Assembly: GCA_030167145.1 (NCBI GenBank)
Contig: CP126532.1
Span: 3,540,001-3,572,000, forward strand
Length of the DNA stretch: 32,000 nt
Direction: 5' to 3'
From: Ktedonobacterales bacterium
Lineage (GTDB): Bacteria > Chloroflexota > Ktedonobacteria > Ktedonobacterales > JADMIN01
Below, piece after piece: positions 3,005 to 27,660 of the stretch; the stretch's first letter is position 1, and each line of letters begins with the position of its first letter. Both the position numbers and the translations under genes were made by a program. The notes under the pieces are model-generated. The model was not told the DNA's origin, ran no database searches, and saw only the letters and a program-made list of their open reading frames with translations.

Positions 3005-3850
3005 TTATTCCTCGATGCGCGGCGGACCCTGGCGGATGCGCGTGCGGATGTCGGTTAGCTCGTTCGGCGCTTCCCACATCGCTTCCATCCACCACGTCGC
3101 GCCCGCCTCGGCGAAGGAGTGTACGGTGTCCGCCGCTTTCGCGGGGATGTCGCCGGGGGTGCGGCCCTCGCAGACGATGTCGAACGGGGTGGTTTGTGTG
3201 CGGCGCTCGGCGATGTAAGCGCGCATCTCGCCGATGTCCGCCGGGGTGATCTCAGCGCCGCTGCCGTCGGGGTTGCGCTTGTTGGGGAGCAACCCGTCGT
3301 AGCGCAACACGCGGTCCATAGATTTGGCGCTGGGCCAGAGGCCGACGACCCAAATGGGGATGCGCGGCGATTGAACGATCGGCGGCAGGAAGGTCATTTC
3401 CTCTAGCTGATAATGTTTGCCGGTGTAGCTGAAGGGCTTGCCGCTCCACAGGCCAGTGAGGATGGCGAGGCTCTCATCCAGCAGTTCGGCGCGCGTCTTG
3501 CGGTCGGTTGGCTCGCCGACTTTGCCGAAGCCGCCATCGTCTATCGCGCCCAGTCCCACCGGCAGTACCAGCCGCCCATGCGAGAGGTGATCGAGGGTCA
3601 TCGTCTCGCGGGCGATCTTCCACGGGCGGCGGCGCGAGAGCGGGGTGAGCATCGCCCCCAGCCGCACGCGCTCGGTTCGCATCGCCATTGCTGCCATCGT
3701 CACCCACGGATCGAACATCGCCCCCACGCCTTCGATGCAGATGCCATCCCAATAAAATGCCCCATCCCAGCCCGCCGCTTCGATCTCATGGGCCAGTTCG
3801 GCGATGGTCTCCACCTCGTCCCCGCGTGGAATGATGAACCCATACCGCAT
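3005..3850 (-). CDS. LLM-class (luciferase-like) flavin/F420-dependent oxidoreductase
   Basis: MRYGFIIPRGD...GWDGAFYWDG...RVRLGAMLTPLSRRRPWKIARE..LDHLSHGRLVLPVGLG... fits the luciferase-like TIM-barrel pattern. I moved the start from the track's 3931 to ATG 3850, which is preceded by GAGAGGAG. Confidence 0.75.
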   Translation of the reverse strand: MRYGFIIPRGDEVETIAELAHEIEAAGWDGAFYWDGICIEGVGAMFDPWVTMAAMAMRTERVRLGAMLTPLSRRRPWKIARETMTLDHLSHGRLVLPVGLGAIDDGGFGKVGEPTDRKTRAELLDESLAILTGLWSGKPFSYTGKHYQLEEMTFLPPIVQSPRIPIWVVGLWPSAKSMDRVLRYDGLLPNKRNPDGSGAEITPADIGEMRAYIAERRTQTTPFDIVCEGRTPGDIPAKAADTVHSFAEAGATWWMEAMWEAPNELTDIRTRIRQGPPRIEE

Positions 3851-3907
3851 GTTCGCGCTGCTCCTCTCGTGTGGTCGTGTGTGGCCGCGTGTCGTGCCAA
3901 CTCTGGC

Positions 3908-3935
3908 AGTGTACGCAGTGAATGATGACATGCAA
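3908..3935 (-). promoter_or_regulatory. Proximal promoter of the LLM gene
   Basis: Minus strand: TTGCAT (3935..3930), a 16-nt spacer, then TACACT (3913..3908), about 55 nt upstream of ATG 3850. It overlaps the palindrome ATGACAT-GCA-ATGTCAT (3925-3941). Confidence 0.4.
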
Positions 3936-3936
3936 T

Positions 3937-3975
3937 GTCATATTTCGCGGTCATATTTCGCGGTCATGTTTCGCG
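3937..3975. repeat. Tandem 13-mer GTCATATTTCGCG x3
   Basis: Copies at 3937-3949, 3950-3962 and 3963-3975. The third copy has A>G. Confidence 0.85.
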
Positions 3976-3982
3976 CGGCGGC

Positions 3983-4063
3983 GCAGTGGCCGCAGTGGCC
4001 GCAGTGGCCGCAGTGGCCGCAGTGGCCGCAGTGGCCGCAGTGGCCGCAGTGGCCGCAGTGGCC
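3983..4063. repeat. Perfect tandem 9-mer GCAGTGGCC x9 (81 bp)
   Basis: Counted base by base: nine identical units with no interruption. Each unit carries a GGCC core, so slipped hairpins (GGCC-N5-GGCC) are possible. Confidence 0.95.
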
Positions 4064-4073
4064 GATGGGTGTA

Positions 4074-4093
4074 GTTGCCGATTCTGCCGATTT
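4074..4093. repeat. Dispersed 20-mer GTTGCCGATTCTGCCGATTT, copy 1
   Basis: Identical to the copies at 4248 and 4603. Internally it is a 9-bp-phased direct repeat, TGCCGATT-n-TGCCGATT. Confidence 0.9.
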
Positions 4094-4145
4094 GCACAGT
4101 GGTATGGGGGTGTATGTCGGGAGATGACGGGAAATGGGTGGAGAA

Positions 4146-4166
4146 TTTTCGCCGTTTTCGCCGCGG
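4146..4166. repeat. TTTTCGCCG TTTTCGCCG CGG box, copy 1
   Basis: A 9-mer doublet. It recurs at 4388-4407, and a single unit occurs at 6198-6209. Confidence 0.8.
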
Positions 4167-4212
4167 TTTCGTGCTGGTTGGAGTGGCCGGAGTTGCCGAT
4201 TTTTCGACACGG

Positions 4213-4240
4213 GCAGACAGGAATGTCCGCCCCACCAGTG
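4213..4240. repeat. Hairpin motif GCAGACA-GGAA-TGTCCGC followed by CCCACCAGTG, copy 1
   Basis: 7-bp stem with one A.C mismatch. The same architecture recurs at 4506-4533. Confidence 0.6.
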
Positions 4241-4247
4241 GCAAGAA

Positions 4248-4267
4248 GTTGCCGATTCTGCCGATTT
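4248..4267. repeat. Dispersed 20-mer, copy 2
   Basis: GTTGCCGATTCTGCCGATTT, identical to copy 1. A half copy, GTTGCCGATTT, lies at 4192-4202. Confidence 0.9.
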
Positions 4268-4382
4268 TTGATGGCGCGGATGGCAAAGTAGGTGGTAGAG
4301 GGAGTTCTCGGCCTGAAGCGCCGAGGGTAATCCCGTGCGAACAGTTCGCGCAGGGGGCGAGTGGATGGATCGAGCGGGTGAG

Positions 4383-4407
4383 TTTTTTTTTCGCCGTTTT
4401 CGCCGCG
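4383..4407. repeat. T9 run followed by TTTTCGCCGTTTTCGCCGCG box, copy 2
   Basis: T9 at 4383-4391 runs into the 9-mer doublet. It is followed by GTGGCCGGA GTGGCCGGA ATGGCCGAT (4415-4441). Confidence 0.8.
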
Positions 4408-4447
4408 AATCGCGGTGGCCGGAGTGGCCGGAATGGCCGATATGCGA

Positions 4448-4467
4448 GTTGCCGATGCTGCCGATTT
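4448..4467. repeat. Dispersed 20-mer, copy 3 (1 mismatch)
   Basis: GTTGCCGATGCTGCCGATTT. Confidence 0.85.
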
Positions 4468-4505
4468 GCGCAGTTGTGTGCGAGTGGTGAGAGTAGTTTG
4501 CGCGA

Positions 4506-4533
4506 GCAGACATTCTTGTCTGCCCCACTGGTG
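4506..4533. repeat. Hairpin motif GCAGACA-TTCT-TGTCTGC followed by CCCACTGGTG, copy 2
   Basis: Perfect 7-bp stem with a 4-nt loop. It is followed by 1.5 units of the GTGGCCGCA 9-mer (4541-4553). Confidence 0.6.
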
Positions 4534-4602
4534 ACTGAAGTGGCCGCAGTGGCAGGATATGGTGTGCAAGCATGCTGGCTCTATCAGTGGCTGGAGGTGT
4601 CA

Positions 4603-4622
4603 GTTGCCGATTCTGCCGATTT
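4603..4622. repeat. Dispersed 20-mer, copy 4
   Basis: GTTGCCGATTCTGCCGATTT, identical to copies 1 and 2. Confidence 0.9.
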
Positions 4623-4676
4623 TGTAGGTTCACGCGCATTGCTCGTTGCGGTGGGAGGTGGGAACCGCATGAGAGA

Positions 4677-4685
4677 AGTGTAGCA
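4677..4685 (-). promoter_or_regulatory. Orphan extended -10 element TGCTACACT pointing into the repeat region
   Basis: The forward strand reads AGTGTAGCA, so the minus strand reads TGCTACACT. This is the same 9-mer as the pit promoter (27640..27632) and the element at 6295..6287. The LLM gene has its own proximal promoter, so this one would drive a separate transcript across 4670 to about 3940. Confidence 0.4.
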
Positions 4686-4694
4686 TGCGAGGGG

Positions 4695-4718
4695 GAGGCA
4701 AGGTGGGAGGCAAGGTGG
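4695..4718. repeat. Tandem 12-mer GAGGCAAGGTGG x2
   Basis: Copies at 4695-4706 and 4707-4718, identical. Confidence 0.85.
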
Positions 4719-4862
4719 AAGTTGGGGCGGTCGAATGTGGTCACGTGTGGACACGTGCGGACGCGAGTGCGGGAGGCGGCGAGGTCGGGCTGCGGTGTGA
4801 GCGGCGTCACCGACCGGGCGTATAACTATAGGGGGACGAGGGCTGTATGGAGGAGGGGAAAG

Positions 4863-6179
4863 ATGACAGCCGATGACTTGCGAGGGGACACGAGCACTCA
4901 GCCAGCCGAGGATACGCAACCAGCGCGGCTGCCTGCGGGCGCGGCGCACCGCCGGTGGGGGATGGCCCGCATGCTGTTGGTGGTGAGCGCAGCGCTTCAG
5001 GTCGTGACGTTTTCTCTTCCTTGGGAACACGTCAACATCGTAGGCGCCCACATTGCGCTTGATTACAGTGTATCCACATTTATCACTGATGTCCCGGTCA
5101 ATGAGGTCCTCTACGCTTTTCGATCAGTAGGACTAGCTACACCACACCCGATGCTTGCGGCAGTCTTCTGGGATGTGTTCTGGAGGGGCGCGTTGCTCTT
5201 TATCGGCTTTTGGCTTGTGCTGGCATTCTGCCTTGCAAAGCGATGGGCGCTCCGCTGGTTGCTTGCGGTGCTGTATGGACTGTGGCTGGTTTATACGACG
5301 GTGCTAGCGCTGTCTTTCATCATGACGGCTCATGCAATCAATACCGGAACATATGCGGTGTCGAATCATCCGGCGTGGTGGGAGCAATATGTGCGTGTCG
5401 TCGTGACACTGTTCGGGGAAAGGCCCAGTTACAACCCCACCTCCCCAGCGTGGGGATTTTGGCTCTACGTCGGGGCGCTGGCGATGTGCTGGCTGGCGCT
5501 GGGACTGACGATCACTGCGCTGTTACGCAGCCGGAGCGCGGCGCGGGCTGTGAGTGACGAGCCGAAACGCGCGCGAAAGCTGCCAATTGCGGCCATTCTG
5601 GTGACGGTTGGGGCTGTGGTCTGGCTGGCGAGTGTTGTGGCGCTGCCGATGGCGGTGGCGGATTGCGGCAGACCGCTTGTGCCATGGGCAACAGGTGAAG
5701 CGCGGCGGGTCTGCCAGGCTAACTCGGCGATATATCCCTTCCAGTTGAGCGCATATAGCTTCTTCCTAGACCCCATGCCGGTGCTGGCAAACACCTCCTT
5801 TCTGCGGGGGGATGCCTACAGCCCTGGTAGCAGGATTCTTGGCGTGATTGGTTATTTCCGCAATTTTGGACTGCTGGTGCTGGCGATGTTCGCGACGCCG
5901 CTGGCGTTGGTGGCGGTGTGGCAGGCGCGGGCAACACGGGGACGGGTTGTATGGCTCTCGGCCTGGGCGGTGGTAGTTCTTGGTGAGACAGGGTTCCTGC
6001 TGCATTTGACGACGGAGGTGCTCTCGACGAACTTGCACCCGATATTCGCTGAGGGCATCGGGCTGGGGGCGGTGCTGGCGCCGCTGGGTGCGGCGCTGAT
6101 CGTGGCGGGGGTGGCGCTGAAGTGGCTCCAGATGCGTCGAGATGGTGTGGGCGCAGTGCGGGGCGATACAGCAGCGTAG
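4863..6179 (+). CDS. Polytopic membrane protein of unknown function (438 aa)
   Basis: I moved the start to ATG 4863, which follows GGAGGAGGGG. A possible -10 (TATAACT) lies at 4821-4827. The protein has many hydrophobic helices (MLLVVSAALQVVTF.., LLFIGFWLVLAFCLA.., etc.) and no motif I recognise. By eye, 5040-5400 is locally lower in GC. Confidence 0.7.
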   Translation: MTADDLRGDTSTQPAEDTQPARLPAGAAHRRWGMARMLLVVSAALQVVTFSLPWEHVNIVGAHIALDYSVSTFITDVPVNEVLYAFRSVGLATPHPMLAAVFWDVFWRGALLFIGFWLVLAFCLAKRWALRWLLAVLYGLWLVYTTVLALSFIMTAHAINTGTYAVSNHPAWWEQYVRVVVTLFGERPSYNPTSPAWGFWLYVGALAMCWLALGLTITALLRSRSAARAVSDEPKRARKLPIAAILVTVGAVVWLASVVALPMAVADCGRPLVPWATGEARRVCQANSAIYPFQLSAYSFFLDPMPVLANTSFLRGDAYSPGSRILGVIGYFRNFGLLVLAMFATPLALVAVWQARATRGRVVWLSAWAVVVLGETGFLLHLTTEVLSTNLHPIFAEGIGLGAVLAPLGAALIVAGVALKWLQMRRDGVGAVRGDTAA

Positions 6180-6197
6180 CCTGCGCCAGCTTTATTG

Positions 6198-6332
6198 TTT
6201 TCGCCGCGGATGGCAATTGCCGAAATGGCCCGTGTGGCGCATGCATGGGTGCGTGTTCTTCGCGGGAGGATTGGTCGCATCCAAGCAGTGTAGCATGCCA
6301 GGGCAGGTGAGGGATGTGGTCAGATGCGGTCG
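6198..6332. repeat. Compact paralogue (module B) of the 4388-4763 repeat/promoter module
   Basis: The landmarks appear in the same order as in module A: TTTTCGCCGCGG (6198), AATGGCC, GGGAGG, CGCAT, AGTGTAGCATGC (6287), AGG..GCAGGTG, ATGTGGTCA (6314), TGCGGTCG (6325). Confidence 0.5.
6287..6295 (-). promoter_or_regulatory. Orphan extended -10 element TGCTACACT, antisense to the 3' end of the membrane-protein gene
   Basis: Same 12-mer GCATGCTACACT as at 4688..4677. No minus-strand CDS lies downstream. The transcript would run into 6179 and below. Confidence 0.35.
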
Positions 6333-11471: not shown

Positions 11472-11589
11472 CTGATCGGTCTGGGTGGGGTTCAGTATTC
11501 GAGAGATCCTCTGGTGTTCTTGCCAGTGTATCAGACCAGCGTGCTTTATCTGACAATTTCATGCTACATAATACACGCACGCGTCTCAA

Positions 11590-11609
11590 GCATTAAGTTG
11601 CATTAAGTT
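11590..11609. repeat. Tandem 10-mer GCATTAAGTT x2
   Basis: Copies at 11590-11599 and 11600-11609, abutting the -35 of the next promoter. The segment is AT-rich. Confidence 0.8.
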
Positions 11610-11672: not shown

Positions 11673-11888
11673 ATGAGCGCAGAACTGGATTTGACGGTTG
11701 AAGAGGTCGCACGGCGCCTGGGGATTGCGGAAGAGTCCGTGCGGCGCTATCTGCGCTCGGGCAAGTTGCGTGGCTATCGCGCTGGTGGAGTGAAGGCGGG
11801 CTGGCGTGTGCAAGCGCAAGACCTCGAAGCCTTCAAGGCAGCGCGTATGAACATCGCGCTGACGCAAGAAGAAAGGCCAGCGCCCTGA
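11673..11888 (+). CDS. Excisionase-family helix-turn-helix DNA-binding protein
   Basis: LTVEEVARRLGIAEESVRRYLRSGKLRGYRAGG..WRVQAQDLEAF matches the excisionase/MerR-like HTH pattern. Confidence 0.7.
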   Translation: MSAELDLTVEEVARRLGIAEESVRRYLRSGKLRGYRAGGVKAGWRVQAQDLEAFKAARMNIALTQEERPAP

Positions 11889-12969: not shown

Positions 12970-14016
12970 CTAGTGACCCACCTGGCGTCGTGCATCCTCA
13001 GCGCGCATGGCCGCCAGCGAGGCGATGAGGGCCAGCGCGGCGCACAGCCCCGGCCCCACGCTCAGGATCACTGTGTACAAGCCGATGGAGAAGGGGGTCA
13101 CAAGCTCAAGCTCAAAGGGAACCGCGTACATCAGGGGCAGAGCGGAGTTCGCCGCAGCGCCCAGCGGCAGCAGGAGGCTCCCACCCCACACCAGCAGTCG
13201 CCCAGCAGGCACCCCATGTCGGCCATGCAGGTAGGCCCCACCGGCCACCACAGCCGCCACCACCAGGAAGGCGAGGATGAACAGGGAGATGCGGGGGGAC
13301 TGGCGAACGAAGTTGCCTAACCCGTCCGTCATACTCACCAAGCCAGCATAGATAACATGGTCGCCACTCCCACCATCTGCACGTAGAGGAGCGAACAGCC
13401 AGATGGCCCAGGTCAGCAGGGCGATGGCGAACGCGGCGATGCCGGAGATGACTTCGAGCCATGCGGGACGTACTGCCATCGTACCCTCCCTTCTCGCTCC
13501 CTCCCTCGATTGACGTCGTGCATCCTCAGCGCGCATGGCTGCCAGCGAGGCGATGAGGGCCAGCGCGGCGCACAGCCCCGGCCCCACGCTCAGGATCACT
13601 GTGTACAAGCCGATGGAGAAGGGATCCACACGCGCGGATATGAAAGGATTCATGTACATCACGGGCAGAGTGGCGATTGCGGAGGCGCCCAGCGGCAGCA
13701 GGAGGCTCCCACCCCACACCAGCAGTCGCCCAGCAGGCACCCCATGTCGGCCATGCAGGTAGGCCCCACCGGCCACCACAGCCGCCACCACCAGGAAGGC
13801 GAGGATGAACAGGGAGATGCGGGGGGACTGGCGAACGAAGTTGCCCAGGCCAGCCTCACTATCCACCAGGCTTATGTAGAAAAATCGAGGGCAAGAGCCG
13901 CAAATCTCACGCACTCCATAGACTGGGGCGAACAGCCAGATGGCCCAGGTCAGCAGGGCGATGGCGAACGCGGCGATGCCGGAGATGACTTCGAGCCATG
14001 CGGGACGTACTGCCAT
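12970..14016 (-). CDS. Tandemly duplicated four-TM membrane protein, two ~170-aa units fused in frame
   Basis: The 348-aa ORF starts MAVRPAWLEVISGIAAFAIALLTWAIWLFAP at both ATG 14016 and ATG 13479. Each is preceded by the same GGGAGGG RBS. The lower unit alone (12970..13479) could be translated separately. Confidence 0.65.
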   Translation of the reverse strand: MAVRPAWLEVISGIAAFAIALLTWAIWLFAPVYGVREICGSCPRFFYISLVDSEAGLGNFVRQSPRISLFILAFLVVAAVVAGGAYLHGRHGVPAGRLLVWGGSLLLPLGASAIATLPVMYMNPFISARVDPFSIGLYTVILSVGPGLCAALALIASLAAMRAEDARRQSREGARREGTMAVRPAWLEVISGIAAFAIALLTWAIWLFAPLRADGGSGDHVIYAGLVSMTDGLGNFVRQSPRISLFILAFLVVAAVVAGGAYLHGRHGVPAGRLLVWGGSLLLPLGAAANSALPLMYAVPFELELVTPFSIGLYTVILSVGPGLCAALALIASLAAMRAEDARRQVGH

Positions 14017-17855: not shown

Positions 17856-17864
17856 ATTGTAGCA
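17856..17864 (-). promoter_or_regulatory. Extended -10 element TGCTACAAT for the DinB gene
   Basis: The minus strand reads TGCTACAAT, about 45 nt upstream of ATG 17809. Confidence 0.45.
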
Positions 17865-17946
17865 GGCAATGTGGACAGCCCTTGTCCCATTTCGCAGCAT
17901 TTTCCGCCGTGATCTTCAGCGCGCTGCCGATGCTGGCCACACCCGT

Positions 17947-17987
17947 GCGCGTGGCCAGCGCGTGGCCAGCGCGTGACCAGCGCGCGG
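17947..17987. repeat. Tandem 11-mer GCGCGTGGCCA, about 3.7 copies
   Basis: Copies at 17947-17957, 17958-17968 and 17969-17979 (G>A), plus a partial copy. It lies in the divergent DinB/ALDH intergenic region and shares the GTGGCC core with the 3983-4063 array. Confidence 0.85.
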
Positions 17988-18075
17988 GCAATGGAAGCCT
18001 GACATATCGGGGCAGTCGTTCGCCGCATGTGGTTAACTGCGGGGACAGCGAGTTCGTCTTATCCTACAAGCGGAT

Positions 18076-18135: not shown

Positions 18136-20640
18136 ATGAGCGGCACACCGAGCGTCGCGGAGATATTTGAGACGATGGAATATGGACCTGCGCCGGAATC
18201 ATCAGACCCGGCGCGGGCATGGCTGGCGGCGCACGCGCCCCGACTGCGGCTGTTCATCGGCAATGAGTGGCGCGAGCCAAGCACAGGCGAATACTTCGCC
18301 AGCGTCAACCCGGCGACGGCGCAGCCGCTGATCGAAGTGGCGCAGGCAGGCGCGGCGGATGTGGAAGCGGCGGTGCGCGCGGCGCGTGAAGCCTTTCCGG
18401 CGTGGAGCGCGACGCCGGGGCACGTGCGGGCACGGTACTTGTATGCGCTGGCGCGGCAGATTCAGAAGCATTCGCGGCTGTTGGCGGTGCTGGAGACGAT
18501 GGACAACGGTAAGCCGATCCGCGAGACGCGCGACCTGGATATTCCGCTGGTGGCGCGGCACTTCTATCATTACGCGGGCTGGGCGCAACTGCTGGATAGC
18601 GAGTTTCCTGAGATGCGGCCCATCGGCGTCTGCGGGCAGATCATCCCGTGGAACTTTCCGCTGCTGATGCTGGCGTGGAAGATCGCGCCCGCGCTGGCGA
18701 CCGGCAATACCGTCGTGCTCAAGCCCGCCGAGTTCACCTCGATCACCGCCATCGCCTTTGCTGAGATCGTCAAGAGCGTTGGATTGCCGCCGGGGGTGGT
18801 CAACATCGTCACCGGCGACGGGCGCACCGGCGAGCTGATCGTCAACGCGCCGGATATAGACAAGATAGCCTTCACTGGCTCGACCGATGTCGGGCGCATC
18901 ATTCGCAAGGCCACGGCGGGCAGCGGCAAGCGGCTCTCGCTGGAGCTCGGCGGCAAATCGCCGTTCGTCGTCTTCGATGACGCCGACCTGGATTCAGTGG
19001 TGGAGGGCGTGGTGGACGCCATCTGGTTCAACCAGGGGCAGGTCTGCTGCGCTGGATCGCGGCTACTGGTGCAGGAGAGCGTGGCGGAGCAGTTGCTCGC
19101 CAAACTGCGTGCGCGCATGGAGAAGCTGCGCGTGGGCGATCCGCTGGATAAGGCGGTGGACATCGGGGCGATCATCGCGCCGGTGCAGCTTGAGAAGATT
19201 CAGCGACTGGTGAATCAGGGAGTGGCTGAGGGCGCGGAGATGTGGCAGCCGGGCTGGGCCTGCCCCACCGACGGCTATTTCTTCCCGCCGACGCTCTTCA
19301 CTGGCGTCTCGCCCGCCGCGACCATCGCGCAGGTGGAGATCTTCGGACCGGTGCTGGTGGCGATGACGTTCCGCACGCCATCCGAGGCGGTGGCGCTGGC
19401 GAACAATACGCCGTATGGGCTGGCGGCCAGCGTGTGGAGCGAAAACATCAACCTCGCGCTGGATGTGTCGCGGAAGATTGCCGCCGGAACCGTGTGGATC
19501 AACTGCACCAATGTCTTCGACGCGGCGTCGGGCTTCGGCGGCTATCGCGAGAGCGGCTACGGGCGCGAGGGTGGCCGCGAGGGATTGTACGAGTACCTTC
19601 AGCCCGCGTGGGAAGCCGAGCACGCCGCCGATGTTATAGGCGAGGCGGACCATACCCTCACAGCGAGCGGGAAGAACGGCCACAAGCGCGGCAAGAAAGC
19701 TCATGCAGAGCAGGTGGCACTCGCCCAGGCGAATGGCGCGGGTGATGGCGCGCATCTCGCGCCGGAGAGTGACGGTTTCCGCGACTGGCCCGCAATTGAC
19801 CGCACGCCGAAGCTCTTCATCGGTGGGAAGCAGGCGCGGCCCGATTCGGGGTACAGTCGCGAGATATTGGGAGCGCAGGGTGAGCCGCTGGGCGAGGTGG
19901 GCGAGGGCAACCGCAAAGACATCCGCAACGCCGTGGAGGCGGCGCACACGGCGGCGACGGGCTGGGCGGGCGCAACGGCGCATAGCCGCGCGCAGATCCT
20001 CTACTACATCGCCGAGAACCTCGCCACTCGCGCGGATGAGTTCGCCGCGCGGATTCGCGCGCAGACTGGGCGCGACGGTGAGGACGCGGCGTGCGAGGTG
20101 GAACGCGCGATTGAGCGGCTCTTCACCTATGCGGCGTGGGCGGACAAGTACGACGGCGCGGTGCATGGCACGCCGGTGCGCGGGCTGACACTGGCGGTTC
20201 ACGAGCCGGTGGGGGTGCTGGGGCTGGCCTGCCCGGATGAGTATCCATTGCTCGGCTTCGTTTCGTTGGTGGCCCCGGCCATCGCGATGGGCAATACGGT
20301 GATCGCGCTGCCCTCCGAGCGGCACCCGCTGAGCGCGACGGACTTCTATGCTGTGCTGGAAACGTCGGACGTGCCCGCAGGCGTGGTGAATATCGTCACC
20401 GGCGCACGCGACACGCTGGCGAAGGTGCTGGCCGAGCACGACGACGTGGACGGCGTCTGGTACTTCGGCTCCGCTGAGGGCGCGCGGCTGGTGGAGGCGG
20501 CCTCGACCGGCAACATGAAGCGCACGTGGGTGAGCTACGGACATCCGCGCGCGTGGCTGGAGCGCGGGCAAGGTGAGGGGCAGGAGTTCCTGCGCGAGGC
20601 GACGCAGGTGAAGAACATCTGGACGCCGATGGGCGAGTGA
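18136..20640 (+). CDS. Aldehyde dehydrogenase fused to a second, truncated ALDH-like domain (834 aa)
   Basis: The N-terminal ~480 aa read WNFPLLMLAWKIAPALATGNTVVLKPAE, LELGGKSP, QGQVCCAGSR and EIFGPV. The C-terminal ~330 aa read like an ALDH cofactor-binding half (AGVVNIVTG, VWYFGSAEG). Its ELGGK-equivalent reads TWVSYG, and the protein ends soon after. Confidence 0.85.
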   Translation: MSGTPSVAEIFETMEYGPAPESSDPARAWLAAHAPRLRLFIGNEWREPSTGEYFASVNPATAQPLIEVAQAGAADVEAAVRAAREAFPAWSATPGHVRARYLYALARQIQKHSRLLAVLETMDNGKPIRETRDLDIPLVARHFYHYAGWAQLLDSEFPEMRPIGVCGQIIPWNFPLLMLAWKIAPALATGNTVVLKPAEFTSITAIAFAEIVKSVGLPPGVVNIVTGDGRTGELIVNAPDIDKIAFTGSTDVGRIIRKATAGSGKRLSLELGGKSPFVVFDDADLDSVVEGVVDAIWFNQGQVCCAGSRLLVQESVAEQLLAKLRARMEKLRVGDPLDKAVDIGAIIAPVQLEKIQRLVNQGVAEGAEMWQPGWACPTDGYFFPPTLFTGVSPAATIAQVEIFGPVLVAMTFRTPSEAVALANNTPYGLAASVWSENINLALDVSRKIAAGTVWINCTNVFDAASGFGGYRESGYGREGGREGLYEYLQPAWEAEHAADVIGEADHTLTASGKNGHKRGKKAHAEQVALAQANGAGDGAHLAPESDGFRDWPAIDRTPKLFIGGKQARPDSGYSREILGAQGEPLGEVGEGNRKDIRNAVEAAHTAATGWAGATAHSRAQILYYIAENLATRADEFAARIRAQTGRDGEDAACEVERAIERLFTYAAWADKYDGAVHGTPVRGLTLAVHEPVGVLGLACPDEYPLLGFVSLVAPAIAMGNTVIALPSERHPLSATDFYAVLETSDVPAGVVNIVTGARDTLAKVLAEHDDVDGVWYFGSAEGARLVEAASTGNMKRTWVSYGHPRAWLERGQGEGQEFLREATQVKNIWTPMGE

Positions 20641-20735
20641 GGAGCAGCGGCACAAAATCTGCATGCCACCAGATGGGCGTGAGCGGGGCGAATAGCCGCC
20701 CCGCACGTTTCCCCAAGCAGGAAGGTGGCTGCCCG

Positions 20736-21845
20736 ATGCTGCGCGATACGTTGCGACGCCTGGCCGAAGAGGAGCCGGGCGATATTCCTATACTCAGCGT
20801 CTATCTGGATATGCGCCCGCAGGCGACGGGCGAGCGCCCAGGGATGCGCGCCGCGCTGGTGATATTGAAGGACCGGCTGCGCGAGATCGAGAAGACGCTC
20901 TGGCCGCGCGGCCCCGCGCTGGATTCGTTCCGGGCGGATGCTGCGCGGGTCGAAGCCTATATCGAGCAGGAAGCGCCGAGCGAGGCGCAGGGGCTGGCAA
21001 TCTTCTCGTGTTCGGCGCACAACCTCTTCGAGACGGTGGTGTCTGGTGTGCCCTTCGAGACGTATGTGGTGTATAGCCGCCGGGCCGATCTCTTCCAGCT
21101 TGCGAGCCTACTGGAAGAGCAGGAGACGAGCGTGGTCGCGGTAGCCGACACGAGTACTATACGGCTGTTCGTTATGCGCCGTGGATTCTTGCGCGAGGTG
21201 GAAGGCGTGGATGAACCGAACTTCTACTACAGCATGCGCAACACCGGCGGATTGAACCAGCCTCGGTACCAGCGCAGCATCAAGAATAATCGCGTCGCGT
21301 TCGCCAAGGAGGCGGCGGCGGAACTGGAGTTGTTGGTGGATGAGGTGGGCGCGGTGCGTGTGGTGCTGGCGGGCGACGAGGTGGCGATTCCGTTGCTGCG
21401 GGCGGCGCTCTCGCCACAGGTCGCGCAGATGACGCTGGAGACCGTGCCGCGCTTCGACATTCGCGCCCCGCGCACCGAGATCGAGCAGGAGGTCGCGCCG
21501 ATGCTAGTCGAGGCCGAAAAAGAAGACGAGCGCGCGCTGGCCGATCAACTGCTGGATGCAATCCAGGCGAACGGGCTGGGTGTCGCGGGCTTGGAGCCAA
21601 CGCGGCAGGCGCTGAACTGGGGGCAGGTGGATACGCTGCTACTGCTGATGGACGCGCCCATCTCCGACGACGACCGCCGCAAGCTGGTGCAGCAGGCGGT
21701 GCTGACTGGCGCGGAGGTAGAGACCGTCGAGCAACACGAGGCGCTGAAAGAGTTGGGCGGGGTGGGCGCGCTGCTGCGCTACCGGCATCACGCGCCGCCG
21801 ATGGAGTATCCTGCCGAATTCGGCCAGCACCCAGAATTGATTTGA
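20736..21845 (+). CDS. Bacterial eRF1-fold protein (baeRF / Vms1-Ankzf1-like peptidyl-tRNA hydrolase family)
   Basis: ATG 20736 follows GGAAGGTGG. The N-terminus ILSVYLDMRP.. is typical. The loop RNTGGLNQPRYQRS sits where eRF1 has GGQ and gives a GxxQ pattern as in Vms1. The C-terminal GGVGALLRY matches the eRF1/Pelota domain-3 signature. An alternative GTG 20637 overlaps the ALDH stop. Confidence 0.7.
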   Translation: MLRDTLRRLAEEEPGDIPILSVYLDMRPQATGERPGMRAALVILKDRLREIEKTLWPRGPALDSFRADAARVEAYIEQEAPSEAQGLAIFSCSAHNLFETVVSGVPFETYVVYSRRADLFQLASLLEEQETSVVAVADTSTIRLFVMRRGFLREVEGVDEPNFYYSMRNTGGLNQPRYQRSIKNNRVAFAKEAAAELELLVDEVGAVRVVLAGDEVAIPLLRAALSPQVAQMTLETVPRFDIRAPRTEIEQEVAPMLVEAEKEDERALADQLLDAIQANGLGVAGLEPTRQALNWGQVDTLLLLMDAPISDDDRRKLVQQAVLTGAEVETVEQHEALKELGGVGALLRYRHHAPPMEYPAEFGQHPELI

Positions 21846-21855
21846 TTGCTCTCAG

Positions 21856-22359
21856 CTAATCGCGCATCACGCTTTCGAGCAGCGCCCTCACCCGCGCATG
21901 CTCCTGGCTCCAGGCGTCCCAAACCGATTGGCGCCACTGCCGCAACATGTGGTCGCGCTGTTCGCCTGGTGGCGCGCGCAGCACATCCAACACGGTCAAC
22001 GAGCCACGCAGAGCAGGCGGTGTGAACGGCGGCCATGTCTTCGTGCGTCGCGCCAGGAGCATGTGCATGTGCTGCACCTTCTTGCCGGAATAATCCTGTT
22101 CACAGGCGAGGTACAGGCCGATCAGCGCGAATGCCACGGTAATAGGTCGCGCCTGTTCTCCGGCGTGTTGCGCGCCATAGGTATCAACCGCGTGCTGGTG
22201 CATGAAGGCCACATCACCGCGCGTCACGGTATACGCCGTCAGTTCGCCGTAGAGTTGCCAGCATTCGGGAGACGCATTATATCTGCTGTCGGGTTGTTCC
22301 TCCGACATCAGCAGGCGCACACCACAGCCAGGACAGTCTCGATAGTGTAGCATGGTCAT
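21856..22359 (-). CDS. Cys-containing hypothetical protein (resembles DUF5946; identification uncertain)
   Basis: ATG 22359. The sequence is MTMLHYRDCPGCGVRLL...YNASPECWQLYGELTAYT..., a CxxC...C pattern. The track ORF to 22497 is over-extended. Confidence 0.55.
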   Translation of the reverse strand: MTMLHYRDCPGCGVRLLMSEEQPDSRYNASPECWQLYGELTAYTVTRGDVAFMHQHAVDTYGAQHAGEQARPITVAFALIGLYLACEQDYSGKKVQHMHMLLARRTKTWPPFTPPALRGSLTVLDVLRAPPGEQRDHMLRQWRQSVWDAWSQEHARVRALLESVMRD

Positions 22360-26170: not shown

Positions 26171-26413
26171 GTATTCGCTCCCTTTCCCAATGCGCTTATG
26201 ATGTGGGACACCCGTACACAATTGTACATGGCGCGGGCGATGCTCTCCCACTGCTGGCGCATCCACCGAGACGGCTGCTACAGTCGTTGAGCTACGGGGC
26301 ACGTTCGTGAGCGAGGGCGGTATCTGGGGCGCTACTGCCTCACTGCCGCCACCGAACCGACGAGCGCCCTCAATGCGTTTACGCCGCGCGAAATCGGCCG
26401 GTTACGCATCCAG

Positions 26414-27631: not shown

Positions 27632-27660
27632 AGTGTAGCAGTACGCGCCAGAACGCGCAA
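27632..27660 (-). promoter_or_regulatory. Promoter of the PiT transporter gene
   Basis: Minus strand: TTGCGC (27660..27655), a 17-nt spacer, then TACACT (27637..27632) preceded by TGC. It lies about 60 nt upstream of ATG 27571. Confidence 0.5.

Follow-up and report, generated by a model that had tools for sequence, protein, structure and literature searches.

A probable mosaic of REP-type hairpins and 9-bp-phased direct repeats between two divergent genes of a Ktedonobacterales genome

The 32,000-nt stretch of DNA analyzed here (the window) comes from a metagenome-assembled genome (MAG) of a member of the Ktedonobacterales, represented by a single 5.07-Mb contig, and contains a repeat block of about 0.8 kb between a gene for a luciferase-like (LLM) oxidoreductase and a divergently oriented, lineage-specific membrane-protein gene. 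We think it reasonably probable that this block is a genuine, non-coding mosaic of short dispersed repeats, resembling a cluster of repetitive extragenic palindromes (REPs) or a bacterial interspersed mosaic element (BIME), and that it has grown through slippage and segmental duplication. Two repeat families would meet in such a mosaic, a new REP family tagged with GTGG and a family of direct repeats, so far undescribed, that are phased at 9 bp and share a GCCG core.

The repeats themselves are readily observed (Table 1). All of the families listed in the original prediction, namely the 13-mer, 9-mer, 20-mer, dimers, hairpins, and 12-mer, were found where they had been placed. The 20-mer, which also has a 23-mer form, AGTTGCCGATTCTGCCGATTT(T/G), occurs four times in the window, from 4074, 4248, 4448, and 4603, always in the block and on the plus strand, at irregular intervals of 174, 200, and 155 bp; shuffled sequences lead one to expect 0.00 copies. 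Runs of 9-mers hold two, three, and nine units, and 9-mers of the GTGGCCG type occupy 4180-4198, 4415-4439, and 4537-4554. Two compositional features claimed at the outset are also strongly developed. The plus strand of the block carries 28 GCCG versus 3 CGGC (window background, 12.4 and 13.7 per kb), and nine pairs of GCCG lie exactly 9 bp apart outside of the perfect array, relative to 0.02 expected. In addition, the A/T content shows a lag-9 autocorrelation of 0.09, which is 2.4 standard deviations over that of shuffled sequences. The statement that the region consists almost entirely of repeats was right as to its construction but overstated as to extent, for exactly repeated 9-mers account for 43% of the region versus 5% in shuffles, and non-repeated stretches of 26-118 nt persist.

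At a higher level of organization, the block holds two diverged copies of a composite module of ~200-350 nt, with young tandem arrays at its edges. The two copies, module A (4140-4275) and module B (4382-4630), differ by large indels and show 67% column identity, yet both of the 20-nt motifs are identical between them at 20 of 20 positions. The order of parts on the plus strand is a TTTTCGCCG dimer, GTGGCC 9-mers, a 20-mer or half 20-mer, a GTGG-tagged hairpin, and another 20-mer.

The same set of motifs, in the same order, is present at two further loci of the MAG, OJF49_002964 (P0021; 390 aa) and OJF49_004480 (P0024; 110 aa), so that the architecture is not the singular one that it had initially appeared to be. 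Both are deposited as "hypothetical proteins"; judging from their sequences, they are translations of other repeat blocks. In tblastn comparisons, residues 53-108 of OJF49_004480 align colinearly with positions 4549..4358 of the window (50% identity over 66 aa, E 4e-13), as do residues 3-122 of OJF49_002964 with positions 4450..3971 (E 3e-14). Between them, the two translations carry the 20-mer in all three frames (KSAESAT, NRQNRQL, and IGRIGN), the hairpin in three frames (HWWGGHSCLPV, TGGADILVCPC, and PLVGRTFLSAR), and the 9-mer dimers (NRGENGEN, GHSGHS, and RPLRPL). Given these shared motifs in a shared order, the composite module is dispersed, with at least three copies of which this block is one. 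Pieces of its repeat vocabulary also occur elsewhere in the window, in the intergenic regions at 17890-17990 (TTTTCCGCCG, CTGCCGATGCTGGCCA, and 3.5 copies of GCGCGTGGCCA) and 6190-6240 (TTTTCGCCGCGGATGGCAA and related sequence); these two regions also yield the repeat fragment TTTTCGCCGCGGATGGCAATTGCCGAAATGGCC. The original prediction had set a dedicated element against motifs scattered throughout the genome, and the scattered state is what was found in part, at the two further MAG loci, in the window fragments, and in the families described below from other genomes. The arrangement is not conserved at its locus in relatives. The membrane protein has 15 homologs with 47-64% identity, and the three homologous gene loci that were retrieved have other upstream neighbors and gaps of 170-290 bp with no copy of the motif. 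BLAST searches with the block against plasmid and phage sequences returned no similar record.

That the block is non-coding, as originally claimed, is supported by its flat codon-position GC, the lack of a Pfam match, and the lack of real homologs. The original prediction was silent on a 290-codon open frame (3938..4810, minus strand) that spans the block, and it is conceivable, if highly improbable, that this frame encodes a low-complexity, His/Cys-rich protein ending in (GHC)8. With 290 of 291 codons open, it has a length reached by 0.1% of mononucleotide shuffles, and the sister block at OJF49_002964 is open over 390 codons. Against a protein, GC at the three codon positions is 0.62/0.58/0.63, relative to a GC3 of 0.69-0.84 and a GC2 near 0.5 in real genes of the window; there is no ribosome-binding site; and the frame is called by neither annotation pipeline, JGI calling a 189-aa plus-strand open reading frame (ORF) in the block and NCBI a 61-aa ORF. 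No Pfam match was obtained for the frame, and in three protein searches, two word-indexed and one exhaustive (phmmer), covering sets of 5.8 billion and 1.84 billion proteins, the sole matches were (GHx)n sequences of low complexity, OJF49_002964, and OJF49_004480. The four 20-mer copies are read in three different frames. As read from the letters, the repeat units are free of stop codons in all six frames, and long open frames would arise from this property as a by-product, with no need to invoke translation. We judge the 290-codon frame to be non-coding.

The two hairpins of the block are palindromes of REP type. Read on the minus strand, both follow the pattern GTGG-GGCRGACA-N4-TGTCTGCC and carry an unpaired GTGG tag. 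Hairpin A, GTGG-GGCGGACA-TTCC-TGTCTGCC(C), has a 9-bp stem and a 4-nt loop, with one stem position that is a G.U pair on the minus strand and an A.C mismatch on the plus strand; hairpin B, GTGG-GGCAGACA-AGAA-TGTCTGCTC, has a perfect 7-bp core stem. A 7-bp core, extended to 9 bp by flanking G/C pairs and closed by a 4-nt loop, is shared by both window copies and 17 related copies. At least six hairpin copies are indicated at three loci, by the two DNA copies and by the translations of the two sister blocks. GTAG-REPs have stems of 6-9 bp, and their tag has degenerate forms, GTRG and GTGG (PMC3733652), and the stem length and unpaired tag of the window hairpins fall within this description. GTAG-REPs are also known from Chloroflexi, with large blocks at few loci in Thermomicrobium roseum, and they occur in frame inside genes and at ORF termini, some being interspersed among other repeat families where the intergenic regions are mosaics (PMC3733652). 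Of the features that define BIMEs, a mosaic of REPs and other short conserved motifs at multiple loci is present (module A, module B, OJF49_002964, and OJF49_004480), while alternating orientation and regular spacing are not.

Related hairpins are also found in viral sequence. The 23-nt hairpin pattern is present in seven IMG/VR viral contigs, with up to four copies each, and a search with the stem alone retrieved 23 viral contigs, in which the tails CCAC (11) and CTAC (3) correspond to GTGG or GTAG on the opposite strand. A tRNA-acceptor minihelix, that is, a 7-bp stem followed by NCCA, was also considered and is made unlikely by the CTAC-tailed variants. The viral copies are located after stop codons, before ribosome-binding sites, or running into the ends of ORFs. 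These observations suggest that the hairpin extends the GTAG/GTGG REP superfamily to Ktedonobacterales and phage-like contigs, where it reshapes gene ends. In one Mu-like phage contig (L185; 4690-4790 and 9010-9070), the hairpin constitutes the last ~20 codons of a portal-like ORF together with the first codons of the next ORF (MATQLMADRDVRPT...), and it also occurs there as a tandem pair after a terminator-like hairpin. In another case (L187, 1380-1430; L188, 9860-9910), the hairpin is adjoined by a further palindrome with a GTAG head, GTAGGGCAGGCTTTCAAGCCTGCC, and by a tandem repeat of 2.5 copies of CTGCCGCAAC, thereby pairing a REP-like element with short TGCCG repeats in phage-like contig sequence of 52% GC.

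The 20-mer family likewise has members outside of the window. Among 185,579 species genomes scanned, the motif was found in three MAGs, two of Chloroflexia and one of Ktedonobacterales. One locus (L008), upstream of a minus-strand gene, has about nine degenerate copies within 460 bp that share a single orientation, and a second (L017) has seven copies. At two others, the copies lie inside coding linkers, in an 813-aa protein (L013) and in the N-terminal linker of a protein that resembles the E1 component of 2-oxoglutarate dehydrogenase (SucA), judged by its sequence (L034; AEKSAESATRSS...FPAESATSAP). A core, TTGCCRWTYYTGCCG, has eight invariant positions in 24 copies from four genomes, a figure biased by the selection of copies for motif similarity. 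The 9-bp phasing of GCCG and of A/T content recurs in the Chloroflexia arrays. At six of six Chloroflexota loci, the GTTGCC... strand is G-rich and antisense to the adjacent or host gene, although the sample is small and does not separate effects of replication from those of transcription. Matches to the 20-mer outside of Chloroflexota proved to be ordinary coding sequence, such as the LPMLPIL motif of DsbD-like proteins, and tandem TTTTGCCGA arrays in three contigs (L133, L157, and L172) are probably an artifact of the 9-mer-dimer query. Viral scans for two copies of TTTTCGCCG and for AGTGGCCGNAGTGGCCG gave many matches, none of which co-occurred with the other motifs. Two related metagenome contigs of 38% GC have a GC-rich TTYTGCCGA tandem array at the same intergenic spot (L133, 184-241; L172, 4121-4169), upstream of a family-2 glycosyltransferase-like gene, with five units in one and four in the other, a copy-number polymorphism. 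The gene beside that of the 813-aa protein (L013, 3746-6643, minus strand) seems, from its translation, to hold an intein-like insertion.

Should the block be a mosaic of dispersed repeats, its history might be reconstructed as follows. The perfect array of nine GCAGTGGCC units is probably a recent product of slipped-strand expansion, and modules A and B would reflect segmental duplication accompanied by indels. Copying between loci could have involved gene conversion or recombination, and the hairpins may also have been moved by a single-strand Y1 transposase of the type associated with REPs (RAYT-like). Any function would be generic to all of the blocks, such as binding proteins, shaping DNA architecture, or influencing RNA ends, and this locus would have no dedicated non-coding RNA (ncRNA) gene, set of replication iterons, or centromere of its own.

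Several observations sit uneasily with this picture. Three 20-mers are identical although their flanks cannot be aligned, and the eight core positions are invariant in the 24 copies, a pattern that suggests selection on a recognition site rather than neutral debris, although the copies were picked by their similarity to the motif. The uniform placement of the G-rich motif strand, antisense to the neighboring or host gene at six of six Chloroflexota loci, suggests a strand-specific process or function. The two hairpins stand head-to-tail, 293 bp apart, unlike the alternating REPs of classical BIMEs, and direct repeats, not palindromes, form most of the block. No RAYT gene was found in the 39 kb examined. 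Finally, with the -10-like motif at 4685..4677, the block might be transcribed as a leader.

The main alternative is a protein-binding array built from the 9-bp head-to-tail units, which we regard as possible but rather doubtful. A concrete precedent is BldC (Schumacher et al. 2018), a stand-alone winged-helix protein of 68 residues, of the HTH_17/Xis type, whose protomer binds a 9-bp site; its sites are head-to-tail direct repeats of variable number with the consensus AATTXXXX(C), and they include GATTTCCCC and CATTTGCAC (PMC5859096). By analogy, the 9-bp GCCG repeats, with their core TTGCCRWTYYTGCCG, could be sites of a conserved Chloroflexota protein that polymerizes head-to-tail like BldC or Xis, the repeat blocks being nucleation platforms. 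A BldC/Xis-type winged helix would then nucleate on the 20-mer dimers and spread as a filament over the weaker 9-mers, bending the DNA and modulating both divergent promoters, and this factor would also have targets in the other blocks and in the Chloroflexia arrays. If true, this would amount to an undescribed regulatory or architectural system acting on many promoters across the phylum. The idea is consistent with the 9-bp phasing in the block and in the Chloroflexia arrays, with the head-to-tail repetition of units in variable number, with the 20-mer as a direct-repeat dimer whose invariant positions hold across genomes, and with the location of the arrays next to promoters. In the BldC register, moreover, the block reads GATTCTGCC followed directly by GATTTGCAC, as well as two copies of [A/G]TTTTCGCC, and all of these fit the AT-rich tetrad and the C-G pair at position 9. 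The window also encodes a 71-aa HTH_17 protein that has 38% identity to BldC over 37 residues, including the equivalents of Arg30 and Lys36, and whose best solved relative is a mycobacteriophage Xis. On the other side, a distance of 7 kb separates the HTH_17 gene from the block, and the sequence upstream of this gene has a different 10-mer, GCATTAAGTT, in two copies; GCAGTGGCC, GGAGTGGCC, GATTTTTGA, and GATTTTGTA do not fit the tetrad and position-9 pattern, and the largest array, that of nine GCAGTGGCC, lacks the AT-rich tetrad that BldC needs. Copies of the 20-mer within coding linkers would be unexpected for operators, and the likeness to BldC sites is loose, their consensus being weak. At 11590-11609 (plus strand), the two copies of GCATTAAGTT form a perfect direct repeat that abuts a TTGACA hexamer 5' of the HTH_17 gene (11673-11885, plus strand) and may be that gene's own operator; the next small ORF and a lower GC content nearby hint at the remnant of a mobile element.

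A function in RNA, in which the block would be transcribed leftward from the minus-strand site at 4685..4677 to yield a C-rich, G-poor RNA of ~740 nt (40% C and 21% G) that is either the LLM leader or an ncRNA, appears improbable. The REP hairpins and AAAUCGGCAGAAUCGGCAAC units would then act on RNA stability, processing, Rho loading, or protein binding. The extended -10 motif, TGCTACACT, is indeed present as first reported and identical to that upstream of the PHO4/pit gene (27640..27632), and the TGNTACANT class to which it belongs is found seven times in the window relative to 0.94 expected, with six copies on the minus strand and four that are exactly TGCTACACT. Some members of the class lie at sensible distances upstream of minus-strand genes (pit and a DinB-family gene), so that a minus-strand read-through transcript is possible. 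The variable stem position gives G.U on the minus strand as against A.C on the plus strand, both in hairpin A and in two or more of the three OJF49_004480 copies; at all six loci, the adjacent or host gene has the motif strand AAATCGGCAGAATCGGCAAC as its sense strand; and whole-region folds of both strands gave z-scores of -2.2 and -2.8. These z-scores, however, are modest and inflated by the self-complementary GGCC array, no terminator is predicted, and Rfam gave no match to the block at the gathering threshold and, at E values up to 10, only matches far below gathering, nearly all artifacts of hairpin models on the 9-mer array. In phage contigs, the sense strand of the hairpin is the opposite one, with GNRA-like loops, and no syntenic conservation was seen upstream of the retrieved membrane-gene homologs. 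A dedicated ncRNA of ~700 nt, the reading initially put forward, is left with the -10-like motif and the weak folding z-scores as its basis and is not supported. Two of the TGNTACANT copies, at 6295 and 11533, point into opposite-strand genes at their 3' ends, and transcripts from them would be antisense. Quite unlikely, too, is a phase-variable contingency region, in which the copy number of the 9-mer and 13-mer beside the LLM promoter would switch expression. The array of nine 9-mers and the three 13-mers do sit 2-130 bp upstream of the -35 hexamer, and the comparable array in L133 and L172 differs by one unit, but the arrays are located upstream of the -35 rather than in the promoter spacer or a coding frame, and across the block the NCBI and JGI versions of the genome do not differ. 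Iteron-type replication origins and centromere-like partition sites, the other roles originally proposed, share with the block direct repeats of ~20 bp in one orientation within an intergenic region, but either role is very hard to credit here. The spacing of the 20-mers is irregular; the 39 kb examined contain neither rep nor par genes and neither dnaA nor an integrase gene, and Pfam annotation of the window revealed no parA/parB or parM/parR; the GC content of 0.56-0.64 offers no AT-rich unwinding region; the GC skew, +0.25 to +0.44 over 4000-4900, does not switch at the site; and the same motifs occur at several chromosomal loci and inside genes, with no similarity to plasmids or phages. 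Other candidates were also set aside, including a CRISPR array (variable spacing, several repeat types mixed, and no cas genes), the att site of an integrative element (no integrase and no tRNA in the window), a sigma-28 -10 element (GCCGATAA; no TAAA at the right distance), and resemblances to sigma-54 sites and to AdpA, Spo0A, and DnaA boxes (single or partial matches). Taken as a whole, the iteron, centromere, dedicated-ncRNA, and coding readings are unlikely, and a generic protein-binding role for the 9-bp units is a reasonable hypothesis within a mosaic of dispersed repeats.

The genes that flank the block have the NCBI locus tags OJF49_003401 and OJF49_003404. The left border of the block coincides with the LLM promoter-like site, and a scan of 3700-5000 for the sigma-70 consensus called no promoter, the LLM site included. 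Elsewhere in the window, a fluoride riboswitch (RF01734) is located at 1515-1587 on the plus strand (39.6 bits versus a gathering threshold of 34), directly 5' of crcB (1681-2316). A 348-aa membrane-protein ORF with no Pfam match (12970-14016, minus strand) is an internal tandem duplication of two ~528-nt units that are 87-95% identical and encode two near-identical protein halves. Lastly, a bacterial eRF1-like protein of the baeRF family is encoded at 20637-21845 on the plus strand, in slight overlap with the upstream gene for an 834-aa aldehyde dehydrogenase-like protein.

Table 1. Coordinates of the repeat block's features, the flanking genes, and the promoter-like motifs (window positions)
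Feature	Position	Strand	Remarks
LLM (luciferase-like) oxidoreductase gene	3005-3850	-	Pfam Bac_luciferase, E 1e-35
LLM promoter-like site	3935..3908	-	TTGCAT (3935..3930), 16-nt spacer, TACACT (3913..3908); matched by eye
13-mer GTCATATTTCGCG x3	3937..3975	+	Copy 3 with 1 mismatch
9-mer GCAGTGGCC, perfect tandem array	3982..4064	+	9.2 copies
20-mer copy U1, AGTTGCCGATTCTGCCGATTTG	4073..4094	+	Exact; dimer of 9-bp unit TGCCGATTY
10-mer ATGACGGGAA x2.3	4114..4136	+	Found with TRF
TTTTCGCCGTTTTCGCCGCG copy 1, 9-bp dimer	4146..4165	+	Opens module A
GGAGTGGCC GGAGTTGCCGATTTTT	4180..4204	+	GTGGCC 9-mer run passing into half 20-mer
Hairpin A	4211..4235	-	REP-type
20-mer copy U2	4247..4268	+	Exact
T9 run, then TTTTCGCCGTTTTCGCCGCG copy 2	4383..4407	+	Opens module B
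GCGGTGGCC GGAGTGGCC GGAATGGCC GATAT	4412..4444	+	Run of three 9-mers
20-mer copy U3	4447..4468	+	1 mismatch (T to G)
Hairpin B	4504..4528	-	REP-type
GAAGTGGCCGCAGTGGCAG	4537..4555	+	Degenerate GTGGCC 9-mer pair
20-mer copy U4	4602..4623	+	Exact
TGCTACACT, extended -10-like motif	4685..4677	-	Directed leftward across block
12-mer GGGAGGCAAGGT x2.2	4693..4718	+	
10-mer TGTGGACACG x2.7	4736..4762	+	Beyond the coordinates of the original prediction; found with TRF
Lineage-specific membrane-protein gene	4863-6179	+	Divergent from LLM gene across block
TGNTACANT class copies	4685..4677, 6295..6287, 22352..22344, 27640..27632 (all -); also 17864..17856, 11533..11525, 26276-26284		

Blocks of this kind are of practical importance in that they break short-read assemblies and give rise to spurious "hypothetical proteins," two of which have been deposited for this MAG. 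Among the Logan short-read contigs of the same sample, one stops at position 4007, inside the 9-mer array, and the next begins at 4213. Recognition of the repeat family should help to clean up the annotation of Chloroflexota genomes. The conserved, strand-oriented, 9-bp-phased 20-mer, for which no description was found in the literature searched, also provides a defined bait for a binding factor; such a factor, if real, would open a first way into global DNA-binding regulation in a phylum that has been little studied.

The short tandemly repeated repetitive (STRR) sequences of cyanobacteria and the mycobacterial interspersed repetitive units/variable-number tandem repeats (MIRU/VNTR) are short, tandem, intergenic units found at many loci of a lineage in variable copy number. 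The repeats described here are similarly short, tandem, intergenic families at several loci, but differ in that their 9-mers have a GCCG core and stand among palindromes and a conserved 20-mer, in a higher-order sequence that is fixed. Iterons of plasmids and parC/parS centromeres are comparable in the orientation, ~20-bp length, and intergenic location of their direct repeats, and differ from the block, which is chromosomal, multi-locus, irregularly spaced, without rep or par genes in the 39 kb examined, and dissimilar to the plasmid records searched. BldC operators and the arrays bound by Xis-type recombination directionality factors match it in their 9-bp head-to-tail units, in variable number and consensus, in the succession of an AT-rich and a G/C part, and in their proximity to promoters; unlike those operators, the present units include GCAGTGGCC and GGAGTGGCC types that lack the AT-rich tetrad, and they extend over 0.8 kb and into coding linkers. 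Rickettsia palindromic elements and intragenic REPs (cited in PMC3733652) likewise consist of stop-free units that occur in frame within functional genes, as do the present repeats in the SucA linker of L034, the 813-aa protein of L013, and the portal C-terminus of L185; the in-gene 20-mer copies, however, are direct repeats rather than palindromes. The closest parallel is with GTAG-REPs and BIMEs (Di Nocera et al. 2013, PMC3733652; Nunvar et al. 2010, PMC2817692; Ton-Hoang et al. 2012, PMC3333891), which have GC-rich stems of 7-9 bp, 4-nt loops, and a GT(G/A)G tag that is left unpaired, are multi-copy, lie in intergenic regions and at ORF ends with few large clusters, as in Thermomicrobium roseum, and form blocks in which units are repeated along with adjacent DNA and interspersed among repeats of other families. 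Relative to these, the Ktedonobacterales block has only two palindromes among ~20 units that are mostly 9-bp direct repeats, hairpins that do not alternate in orientation, no RAYT gene in the 39 kb examined, and an apparently low copy number.

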